In this document: positions 21,646-23,745 of the stretch, in pieces | Layout of the letters: every line of letters begins with the position of its first letter | How positions within the stretch are numbered: position 1 is the stretch's first letter | Position numbers and translations under genes: made by a program | The notes under the pieces: generated by a model | The model's input: only the letters and a program-made list of their open reading frames with translations | Told to the model about the DNA's origin: nothing | Database searches by the model: none | Sequence record: OM632671.1 | Length of the DNA stretch: 64,000 nt | DNA from: Escherichia phage BEU50 | Reading direction: 5' to 3' (one strand)

Positions 21646-22668
21646 ATGGCTGAATGGATAGATAATGAATTTGCTTATCGTGCGTTTTCTCACCTCCCTC
21701 GTTTTAGACAAATCAATAATTCAAGCACATTTAAATTAACGTTTCGTTGTCCAGTTTGTGGCGACTCTCAGACAGATGCAATGAAAGCTCGCGGTTGGTA
21801 TTATGGCGGTACTCCTGGTAATGTACATTGCTATAACTGTCAATACCACAATACAATTTCCGGATACTTAAAAGAGTATGATGAAGAGCTTTATCGCGAA
21901 TATCTAATGGAAGTTCGTAAAGAAAAAGCTAGAATGGAACCAAAGATTGAAAAGGTTCCTGAAGCTAAGCCAGAGCCAGAGAAAAAGACTATAAATTCTT
22001 TGCCGTCTTGTTCTCGTCTGGACAAGTTGCCTGAAGAGCATCCTATTGTGAAATATGTTAAGTCTCGGTGTATTCCTAAAGAATCATGGAACAGATTATG
22101 GTTCACATTAGAATGGCCCAAATTGGTCAACAAGATTCAACCTGGTACGTATAAGAAAGAGATTCCAGAACCACGTTTAGTGATTCCTATTTTTAATAAA
22201 GATGGGAAGGCCGAGTCATTCCAAGGACGTGCACTTCGTAAAGATGCTCCTCAGAAATATATCACTATTAAAGCGTTTGAGTCTGCAACAAAAATTTATG
22301 GTGTTGAACGTGTTAAGGAAGGAGACGTCTGGGTAATGGAAGGCCCTATTGATAGTTTATTCATACCCAATGCAATCGCTATTACAGGCGGCTCAATAGA
22401 TTTAGATGTGGTACCATTTAAAGAACGTCGGGTATGGGTAATGGATAATGAACCTAGGCATCCGGATACTATAGCTCGCATGAAGCGATTAGTTGATGCA
22501 GGCGAACGTGTCATGTTCTGGGATCGAGCTCCATGGAGATCAAAGGATGTGAATGATATGGTAATGAAAGAAAATGCAACACCACAAGAAATTTTAGAAT
22601 ATATGAAACAGAATATTTCAAGTGGGTTGCATGCTAAAATGAGATTATCTCGTTATTCGAAGATTTAA
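21646..22668 (+). CDS. 61: DNA primase gp61
   Basis: Zinc ribbon FRCPVCGDSQTDAMKARGWYYGG...CYNCQYH, TOPRIM-like EGPIDSL, matches T4 gp61 from memory. Confidence 0.9.
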   Translation: MAEWIDNEFAYRAFSHLPRFRQINNSSTFKLTFRCPVCGDSQTDAMKARGWYYGGTPGNVHCYNCQYHNTISGYLKEYDEELYREYLMEVRKEKARMEPKIEKVPEAKPEPEKKTINSLPSCSRLDKLPEEHPIVKYVKSRCIPKESWNRLWFTLEWPKLVNKIQPGTYKKEIPEPRLVIPIFNKDGKAESFQGRALRKDAPQKYITIKAFESATKIYGVERVKEGDVWVMEGPIDSLFIPNAIAITGGSIDLDVVPFKERRVWVMDNEPRHPDTIARMKRLVDAGERVMFWDRAPWRSKDVNDMVMKENATPQEILEYMKQNISSGLHAKMRLSRYSKI

Positions 22669-22853
22669 ACAAGCCCTATAATAGCAAAGGCCAAATCAAC
22701 TACAGTATCCAATGGAACAGAAGGAACTATAATACCATGGGCAACTAACAATGGTGCAATCCCGAAGTTCCATGAAATAATGCCACCTACAACTATTGCA
22801 GTTTTCTTTTTATTGCCTTTAATAGCGTTGATTAACGATGGAAGTTTAAACAT
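22665..22853 (-). CDS. Small membrane protein (62 aa) encoded antisense to the early-gene direction
   Basis: Minus-strand ORF with strong RBS (TAAGGAG, 6 nt, ATG); hydrophobic; occupies the intergenic space between 61 and 56. Confidence 0.35.
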   Translation of the reverse strand: MFKLPSLINAIKGNKKKTAIVVGGIISWNFGIAPLLVAHGIIVPSVPLDTVVDLAFAIIGLV

Positions 22854-22941
22854 AATATCTCCTTAGTTACCTATTATTTATTACGCTTTATAAAATTAAT
22901 GTTAGAATTAACTCTCTTATACTGAATTGAAAGGAAAAATA

Positions 22942-23463
22942 ATGGCACACTTTAACGAATGTTCACAACTTATTTCTGGTGTTGATAAAGCAGAAGAAGC
23001 TTATTTTAATGCTCTGATTCACGAAGATAAAGACCCACTGCAGGTAATGCTTGATATGCAGAAATCTTTACAGGTTCGTCTGGCAAATGACAAGCCTGAA
23101 CATAACAAACATCCTGATGAATTGGCCACTGCTGGTGATGTTGTTGATTGGCTGCGTAATCAGAAAGATTATATTGATGATGAATTCCGTGAACTGCTGA
23201 CTTCACTTGGTGGTATGAGCAATGGTGAGAAAACCGCTAGCTCTGTATGGAAGCCATGGAAAGCACAACATGCTGAATATCGAAATCGTCGTATCGATGA
23301 ACTGTCTCCTGAAGACCAGCTTGAAATTAAATTCGAGATGATTGATATCCTCCACTTTGTTCTGAATATGTTCCAAGGTCTGGGTCTTTCCGCTGAAGAA
23401 ATCTTTAAACTTTACTACTTGAAAAACCAACACAACTTTGAACGTCAGGATAATGGTTACTGA
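22942..23463 (+). CDS. 56: dCTP pyrophosphatase gp56-like (MazG-like)
   Basis: About 173 aa; T4 position near 61; motif content DELATAGDVVDWLRN...EFRELL...DILHFVLNMF. Confidence 0.6.
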   Translation: MAHFNECSQLISGVDKAEEAYFNALIHEDKDPLQVMLDMQKSLQVRLANDKPEHNKHPDELATAGDVVDWLRNQKDYIDDEFRELLTSLGGMSNGEKTASSVWKPWKAQHAEYRNRRIDELSPEDQLEIKFEMIDILHFVLNMFQGLGLSAEEIFKLYYLKNQHNFERQDNGY

Positions 23464-23508: not shown

Positions 23509-23745
23509 ATGGGTGGTTACGTTAATATCAAAACCTTTACACATCCGGCTGGTGAAGGCAAAGAAGTTAAAGGTATGGAAGTTTCTGTACCGTTTGAGAT
23601 TTATTCAAACGAACATCGGATTGCAGATTCTCATTACCAAATCTTTCCATCAGAAAAGGCAGCTTATTCTGATGTCGTTTCTGATGCAGCAACTTGGAAA
23701 ACTAAGAACGCTGCAATGTTTACCCCTACACCAGTAAGTGGTTAA
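23509..23745 (+). CDS. soc: Small outer capsid protein Soc
   Basis: 78 aa; GYVNIKTF...HYQIFPSEKAAYS matches T4 Soc from memory; late promoter and terminator flank it. Confidence 0.65.
   Translation: MGGYVNIKTFTHPAGEGKEVKGMEVSVPFEIYSNEHRIADSHYQIFPSEKAAYSDVVSDAATWKTKNAAMFTPTPVSG

Follow-up and report, generated by a model that had tools for sequence, protein, structure and literature searches.

A conserved opposite-strand small gene beside primase in Tevenvirinae phages, probably of the late class and predicted to encode a single-pass membrane protein

Introduction

Between the primase gene (gene 61) and gene 56 of a T4-type phage, where all annotated neighbours are read from the plus strand, a short open reading frame (ORF) lies alone on the minus strand. 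Is it a gene, when would it be transcribed, and what could its product do? These questions were addressed here on a 64,000-nt stretch of Escherichia phage BEU50 (OM632671.1), the whole of which is called the window below. The window belongs to a Mosigvirus, an RB69-like T4-type phage of the Tevenvirinae, and the region of interest shares 99.8% identity with Escherichia phage NRG-P0074 and 97-98% with HX01-like Mosigvirus phages.

The ORF as such is already known. In the records of NRG-P0074 and the HX01-like phages, it is annotated on the minus strand as a 'hypothetical protein'; it is named RB69ORF029w in RB69 and RB32ORF030w in RB14/RB32; and it is clustered in PHROGs, where residues 1-62 match positions 1-65 of the 65 positions of the phrog_2024 profile (E=2.1e-24). 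Literature searches on RB32ORF030w, RB69ORF029w and phrog_2024 found no paper. Moreover, the T4 omics, CRISPRi-ART and HIDEN-SEQ papers contained no mention of the ORF, and the T4 proteome/transcriptome paper gave no sign of covering it. What is added in this study is evidence from sequence comparison that the ORF is genuinely coding, that it belongs to the late class, that its position is kept in at least seven Tevenvirinae genera, and that it was omitted from the T4 reference annotation.

Results

The minus-strand ORF starts with ATG and encodes the 62-aa protein MFKLPSLINAIKGNKKKTAIVVGGIISWNFGIAPLLVAHGIIVPSVPLDTVVDLAFAIIGLV (Table 1). A previous sequence-only reading of the window had described a hydrophobic minus-strand ORF of this length amid plus-strand neighbours, and its coordinates and ATG agreed with our analysis, which gave a GRAVY of +1.17. 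That reading also held that the ORF fills the whole intergenic gap, which was not borne out: the gap between primase and gene 56 (22669-22941) measures 273 nt, of which the ORF occupies 185 nt, and the remaining 88 nt (22854-22941) carry back-to-back promoter-like elements. The term 'antisense' used for the gene proved to be a misnomer, because no coding sequence faces the ORF apart from the primase stop codon, which the ORF's own stop overlaps by 4 nt (TTAA). A near-ideal ribosome-binding site, TAAGGAG at 6 nt from the ATG, had been proposed as well; the motif is present, but the spacer is 5 nt long (ATATT).

Table 1. Positions of the features discussed in the text (window coordinates unless a phage or lineage is named)
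Feature	Position	Strand	Remarks
Primase (gene 61)	21646-22668	+	phrog_47, E=9e-102
Hairpin, then UUUUCUUUC (pyrimidine tract)	22574-22632	-	z = -3.3; 35-95 nt past the ORF stop, within the primase 3' coding region
CDS of the 62-aa protein	22665-22853	-	phrog_2024 member; orthologue of RB69ORF029w and RB32ORF030w; purifying selection (from sequence comparison)
Codons 39-62	22668-22739	-	invariant Gly40; loop HG-x-x-[LV]P-x-V-x-L-[DE]; short hydrophobic/acidic C-terminal helix (predicted)
Codons 19-38, predicted transmembrane helix	22740-22799	-	hydropathy, AF2 helix 15-38, family alignment
Codons 1-18, basic amphipathic N-terminal segment	22800-22853	-	K3, K12, K15-17; AF2 helix 4-13
Shine-Dalgarno TAAGGAG	22859-22865	-	5 nt before ATG
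Variant T4-type late-promoter box AATAAATA (-13 to -6)	22875-22882	-	21 nt before ATG
MotA-box-like CGCTTTA, 12-nt spacer, TAGAAT	22884-22908	+	read from sequence
Gene 56 dCTPase homologue	22942-23463	+	phrog_173
Box before soc-like gene	23470	+	perfect TATAAATA; soc-like gene at 23509
Box before endonuclease VII	47888	+	
Boxes before tail-fibre genes	51030, 56097	-	
Box AATAAATA before the ORF	window, T6, JS10		
Box GATAAATA before the ORF	T4, L021, KP179, L025		
Box CATAAATA before the ORF	VR25, L024, KP179		
Perfect box TATAAATA before the ORF	Enterobacter phage MY742		
Box ATTAAATA before the ORF	STP4-a, CkP1		
GC-rich hairpins after the ORF stop	L029 1493-1510; L021 5596-5602 region; L025 6205-6235		

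The length of the ORF is by itself weak evidence, because the ORF list of the window holds many spurious minus-strand ORFs of 30-90 aa nearby. These neighbours, and the lack of any annotation in the curated T4 reference, would suit a chance ORF that annotation pipelines copied from one genome record to another. However, the comparison with other phages left this explanation hardly credible. By tblastn, orthologues were found in 692 phage records, 687 of them with at least 80% coverage; orthologues occur in T4, T6, VR25, JS10, KP179, STP4-a, CkP1, MY742 and metagenomic T4-like contigs. The reading frame is unbroken across genera that share about 25-55% amino-acid identity, and the indels between orthologues are all in frame. 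Within genera, dN/dS was 0.10-0.43; between genera, synonymous sites were saturated (pS ~0.75) at a pN of ~0.33. Furthermore, among 17 distinct sequences, the variable columns at codon positions 1, 2 and 3 numbered 41, 17 and 54 of 62 (chi-square p=5e-11), and the ORF list of the window contained no plus-strand ORF covering the region. The signal goes beyond chance because of this conservation, which joins 692 records and a dN/dS of 0.1-0.4 with codon-position periodicity; the conserved Shine-Dalgarno sequence and promoter box, together with tandem paralogues in Gaprivervirus, also speak against a chance origin, which is effectively refuted by the evolutionary evidence. Comparative analysis showed the ORF to be a genuine gene that evolves under purifying selection as a protein.

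An exhaustive profile search of 1.84 billion representatives returned only 7 clusters, those with inspected context being T4-like phage contigs, and a scan of IMG/VR returned only 10 loci. The remote members obtained by this profile search and subsequent tblastn widened the family to Jiaodavirus, Gelderlandvirus, Karamvirus, Dhakavirus and uncultured T4-like contigs. Wherever the context was inspected, the gene was a lone opposite-strand ORF just downstream of primase, located between gene 61 and either gene 56 or dam, and this position and opposite orientation are kept in at least seven Tevenvirinae genera.

Several variants of the locus were observed. Gaprivervirus carries two tandem paralogues, gp031 and gp032 of VR25 (1501-1698 and 1707-1907 of the VR25 locus), which share the core LWN...P..A...G..LP; UPEC01 has a tandem pair at the same locus coordinates, and Dhakavirus JS10 keeps the gp032-like type only (locus 1259-1459). 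No paralogue was found elsewhere in the window. The copies of the window and of NRG-P0074 are without three codons (Ala-Ile-Ala, near 22797-22799) that occur in most Mosigvirus copies, which makes the hydrophobic helix 3 residues shorter. T6 has ATT in place of the ATG start of T4 and its relatives, with the Shine-Dalgarno sequence intact (T6 locus 1492-1509), and its annotation starts at an internal ATG 15 nt downstream; judging from the sequence, either the ATT serves as a rare start codon or the N-terminus is truncated. Two laboratory-derived T4 clones carry frameshifts in the orthologue: T4_ev240 lacks 1 nt of an A-run, and T4_583L lacks 2 nt as well as 3 nt of the Shine-Dalgarno sequence. 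These clones suggest that the gene is probably dispensable in the laboratory; the frameshifts could also be sequencing errors in homopolymer runs.

In T4 itself, dam and gene 61 are 309 bp apart, and this gap carries no annotated feature in either reference record (NC_000866.4 and AF158101.6). It nevertheless contains an intact orthologue of 66 codons (NC_000866.4 17738-17938, plus strand) with an AAGGAGG Shine-Dalgarno sequence and the box GATAAATA. The orthologue of JS10 is also unannotated in its record, and the SP18 record shows no feature beneath the match.

The strand of the gene bears on the time of its expression. In T4, early and middle transcripts all have one polarity and late transcripts use either; among the listed T4 late sites, 32 of 50 have the perfect TATAAATA and 9 of 50 have A at -13 (Geiduschek and Kassavetis, PMC2988020). 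The ORF shares its strand with the tail-fibre late genes of the window, whereas primase, gene 56 and modA are on the other one, so that by the polarity rule only late transcription can serve it. The box found in the window, AATAAATA, is the A(-13) variant, which is the commonest variant of T4 late promoters by the frequencies in the same source (PMC2988020). A transcript start is predicted near 22869, giving a leader of 16 nt with the Shine-Dalgarno sequence inside. Three occurrences of TAAGGAG-N5-ATG were counted in the window against 0.10 expected from shuffles, and a strong Shine-Dalgarno sequence was present in all orthologues examined.

A late-promoter-like box preceded the start codon in every lineage examined, at a distance of 12-22 nt, or 33 nt in two lineages, and took the form [A/G/C/T]ATAAATA or ATTAAATA (Table 1). 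In T4, the box cannot be explained as a part of the opposite-strand gene 56 promoter, because dam was inserted upstream and the box was retained. The promoter may be weak, because the canonical T at -13 is absent in most lineages. A T4 dRNA-seq study reports 150 phage TSSs, of which 22 are antisense (bioRxiv 10.1101/2024.04.04.588121). Both the box and the polarity support the assignment of the gene, by its sequence features, to the gp55/gp33/gp45-dependent late class of T4-type phages. The sequence-only reading had suggested a late-expressed membrane protein, and this suggestion gained computational support from the late-promoter box, the strand polarity and a predicted hydrophobic helix that follows a Lys cluster.

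Octamers of this kind are scarce in the window. The NATAAATA class has 10 sites on both strands, namely six of TATAAATA and four of AATAAATA, where base composition would predict about 14 of each. Neither GATAAATA nor CATAAATA occurs on either strand of the whole window. This depletion fits selection against stray late promoters. The other copies of the box in the window precede recognisable late or late-plus-early genes (Table 1). At a separate locus, a 238-aa minus-strand ORF (879-1595) with an HNH-like motif (ERHHIIPQCLGG) has a perfect TATAAATA ahead of it at 1648, and may be a late-transcribed homing-endonuclease-like gene.

On the plus strand, the MotA-box-like element (Table 1) is a candidate middle promoter for gene 56, as read from its sequence. 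Only 1 nt separates it from the minus-strand late box, to which it stands back-to-back within the 88-bp divergent region. At the same place, T6 has a perfect TTGCTTTA, 11 nt and TATAAT. Both candidates were recognised by the established T4 consensus. The gene 56 transcript of T4 is annotated as the oriA primer RNA.

At the other end of the gene, a scan for simple or consensus terminators detected no clear terminator after the ORF in the window. The hairpin in the 3' end of the primase gene has an 11-bp stem and a long loop, is located some 35 nt before the primase stop and can be folded on both strands. Similar hairpins occur in T4, T6, VR25 and MY742, where they are made by the codons for conserved A-T-P and G-L residues, and RNAalifold on 11 lineages gave no consensus structure for the hairpin at this primase 3' end. 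The hairpin is possibly a weak terminator of the late antisense transcript, but it may instead stabilise the 3' end of an mRNA or be a by-product of coding. In the lineages that have a gap between the convergent stops (KP179, L021 and L025), a compact GC-rich hairpin directly follows the ORF stop, that of L025 being GAGCTTCGGCTC followed by a T-run. These GC-rich hairpins look like terminators between convergent genes, which would fit an independent convergent unit.

Another possibility is that the key product is a late antisense RNA. In this case, transcription from the late promoter would run into the 3' end of the primase gene and silence gene 61 late in infection, and the ORF would be incidental or secondary. 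The ORF does converge on primase with overlapping stops and no strong terminator behind it in the window, and some T4 sites are transcribed on both strands at different times (PMC2988020). However, the purifying selection, the conserved Shine-Dalgarno sequence and start codon, and the in-frame indels indicate that the peptide itself is selected, and lineages with an intergenic hairpin terminator right after the ORF would not make such an RNA. We regard an antisense RNA as the key product as very improbable, while the two roles, RNA and protein, could coexist.

The 62-aa protein contains five Lys and two Asp, and is predicted to have a single hydrophobic helix of 20-24 residues with a Lys cluster ahead of it. 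An AlphaFold2 (AF2) model built from a 15-sequence alignment showed helices at residues 4-13, 15-38 and 48-61 (pLDDT 78). In a 13-sequence family-wide alignment, Trp28, Pro34 and Gly40 were invariant and Asn29, the Ala at 36 and Pro44 nearly so, which gave the family motif [LA]-W-N-[FYL]-x3-P-x-A-x3-G-x2-[LV]-P-x-[VI]-x-L-[DE]. The AIKG motif of the N-terminal segment is conserved in three genera. The C-terminal 22 residues contain no basic residue and end with AFAIIGLV. By the positive-inside rule, the Lys cluster suggests a cytoplasmic N-terminus, and codons 39-62 are predicted from the model to be periplasmic or at the membrane interface. The Trp-Asn pair sits centrally in the membrane helix. 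Polar Asn residues are known to drive the association of transmembrane helices, and the central pair suggests a specific helix-helix association.

Alternatively, residues 1-40 could be a long cleavable Sec signal peptide, the removal of which would release a functional hydrophobic/acidic peptide of about 22 aa at the periplasmic face. The layout can be read in this way: the n-region is basic, the h-region spans 15 residues, Pro34 stands at -7 and [A/S/T]-x-Gly40 at -3/-1. Signal peptidase I follows a -3/-1 rule, and Pro-x3-[AST]-x-Gly, which matches that rule by eye, is kept family-wide; moreover, the C-terminal segment LDTxVDLAFAxxGL is highly conserved in three genera. However, the most conserved residues (Trp28, Asn29 and Pro34) would lie inside the signal peptide, which would be unusual if that peptide only served targeting and was then discarded, and, at 20 residues, the hydrophobic stretch would make a long h-region. 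Cleavage was considered rather unlikely, and the single-pass membrane protein is preferred.

Similarity searches linked the protein to its own relatives. Pfam gave no characterised match, either for the single protein or for all 15 members of the alignment at E<=10, NCBIfam gave no match, and the AF2 model, compared with BFVD and PDB by Foldseek, matched only members of the family plus noise. A type I toxin was also considered and rejected: the sole match, to Ldr_toxin, came from one family member at E=0.1 and was treated as noise, and a scan of the ORF for an antisense promoter or terminator of its own was negative.

Discussion

In this study, a small ORF on the strand opposite the primase-gene 56 cluster was examined by sequence comparison and structure prediction. 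The preferred reading, to which we assign a probability of roughly three in four, is that it represents a genuine conserved late gene of the Tevenvirinae, the product of which is a single-pass membrane protein with a late function at the level of the envelope. Late in infection, gp55-bearing RNA polymerase would initiate at the variant box AATAAATA and produce a short-leader mRNA that converges on the primase gene and probably reads into it. The 62-aa product would then be inserted into the inner membrane in a single pass, with its Lys-rich N-terminus in the cytoplasm and about 24 C-terminal residues in the periplasm. In the weakest step of the proposal, the mid-membrane Trp, the adjacent Asn, the Pro kink and the Gly cap would make specific helix-helix contacts, either between copies of the protein or with a membrane partner from phage or host. 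Such contacts might modulate a late function of the envelope, for which lysis timing, lysis inhibition or protection of the infected-cell membrane is favoured.

This functional step is a conjecture, because homology to a characterised protein or structure is lacking, and an envelope or lysis-related role as a late inner-membrane modulator is offered with low confidence. The more specific proposal, that this overlooked Tevenvirinae late gene encodes, through its Trp-Asn single-pass product, a new envelope regulator acting on lysis timing, lysis inhibition or anti-defence, is doubtful, although we would not call it far-fetched. If it is true, the protein would be a further player in the timing or inhibition of lysis, or would counteract a host defence that acts at the membrane.

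A related possibility is that the protein is a holin, a pinholin or a viroporin-like pore former which depolarises the membrane late in infection. Such a role would agree with a small, late, hydrophobic protein that has at least one predicted transmembrane domain and a mid-helix polar Asn that could line an oligomer, and one UniProt entry of an orthologue is labelled 'Holin'. However, this label has no stated experimental basis, the protein is without the charged hydrophilic C-terminal tail of holins, its C-terminus being hydrophobic and its charges N-terminal, and no Pfam holin match was found even at E<=10. Furthermore, no lysis gene is nearby, the neighbours being genes of replication and nucleotide metabolism, and T4-type phages already own a holin, T. 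A canonical holin was rejected on the missing charged C-terminal tail, the missing endolysin/spanin linkage and the missing family match, and pore formation in the wider sense appears improbable.

T4 is among the best-studied phages, yet a seemingly 'empty' gap of 309 bp in its genome holds a protein gene conserved in at least seven genera. Studies built on the T4 reference annotation could not score the orthologue, because the gap was left empty; CRISPRi-ART, for example, designed its guides against annotated CDSs only. If the protein affects lysis timing, lysis inhibition or host membrane defences, a new component would be added to a classic system. At present, it adds to the conserved hypothetical small membrane proteins, and small conserved hypothetical late genes are common in T4-like genomes.

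Several known systems offer points of comparison. The single-pass proteins of the AcrZ, MgrB and MgtS class, all shorter than 70 aa, act through intramembrane helix packing; the mid-helix Trp-Asn pair prompted this comparison, which is an analogy only, as they have no homology to the 62-aa protein. The holins S of lambda and S68 of phage 21 resemble it in size, in late expression (inferred here) and in having at least one transmembrane helix, but differ from it in their charged C-terminal tail, lysis-cassette context and family match. Imm, Sp, the RI antiholin and holin T are likewise small phage proteins of the inner membrane or periplasm that act on the envelope, and the imm and sp genes are located a few kb upstream in the window; however, no similarity of sequence or fold to these four proteins was detected, and Imm and Sp are encoded by early genes on the other strand. 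With T4 soc, the gene shares the situation of a small late gene that has a TATAAATA box inside the otherwise early/middle 61-56-mrh region, whereas soc lies on the early-gene strand and encodes a soluble capsid decoration protein, and the 62-aa gene has the other orientation and a variant box, its product being a predicted membrane protein. Finally, phrog_2024, RB69ORF029w and RB32ORF030w represent the same family as the gene described here, with a full-length match and the same position and orientation next to primase, and the sole difference is the 3-residue in-frame deletion (AIA) of the window copy relative to most Mosigvirus copies.
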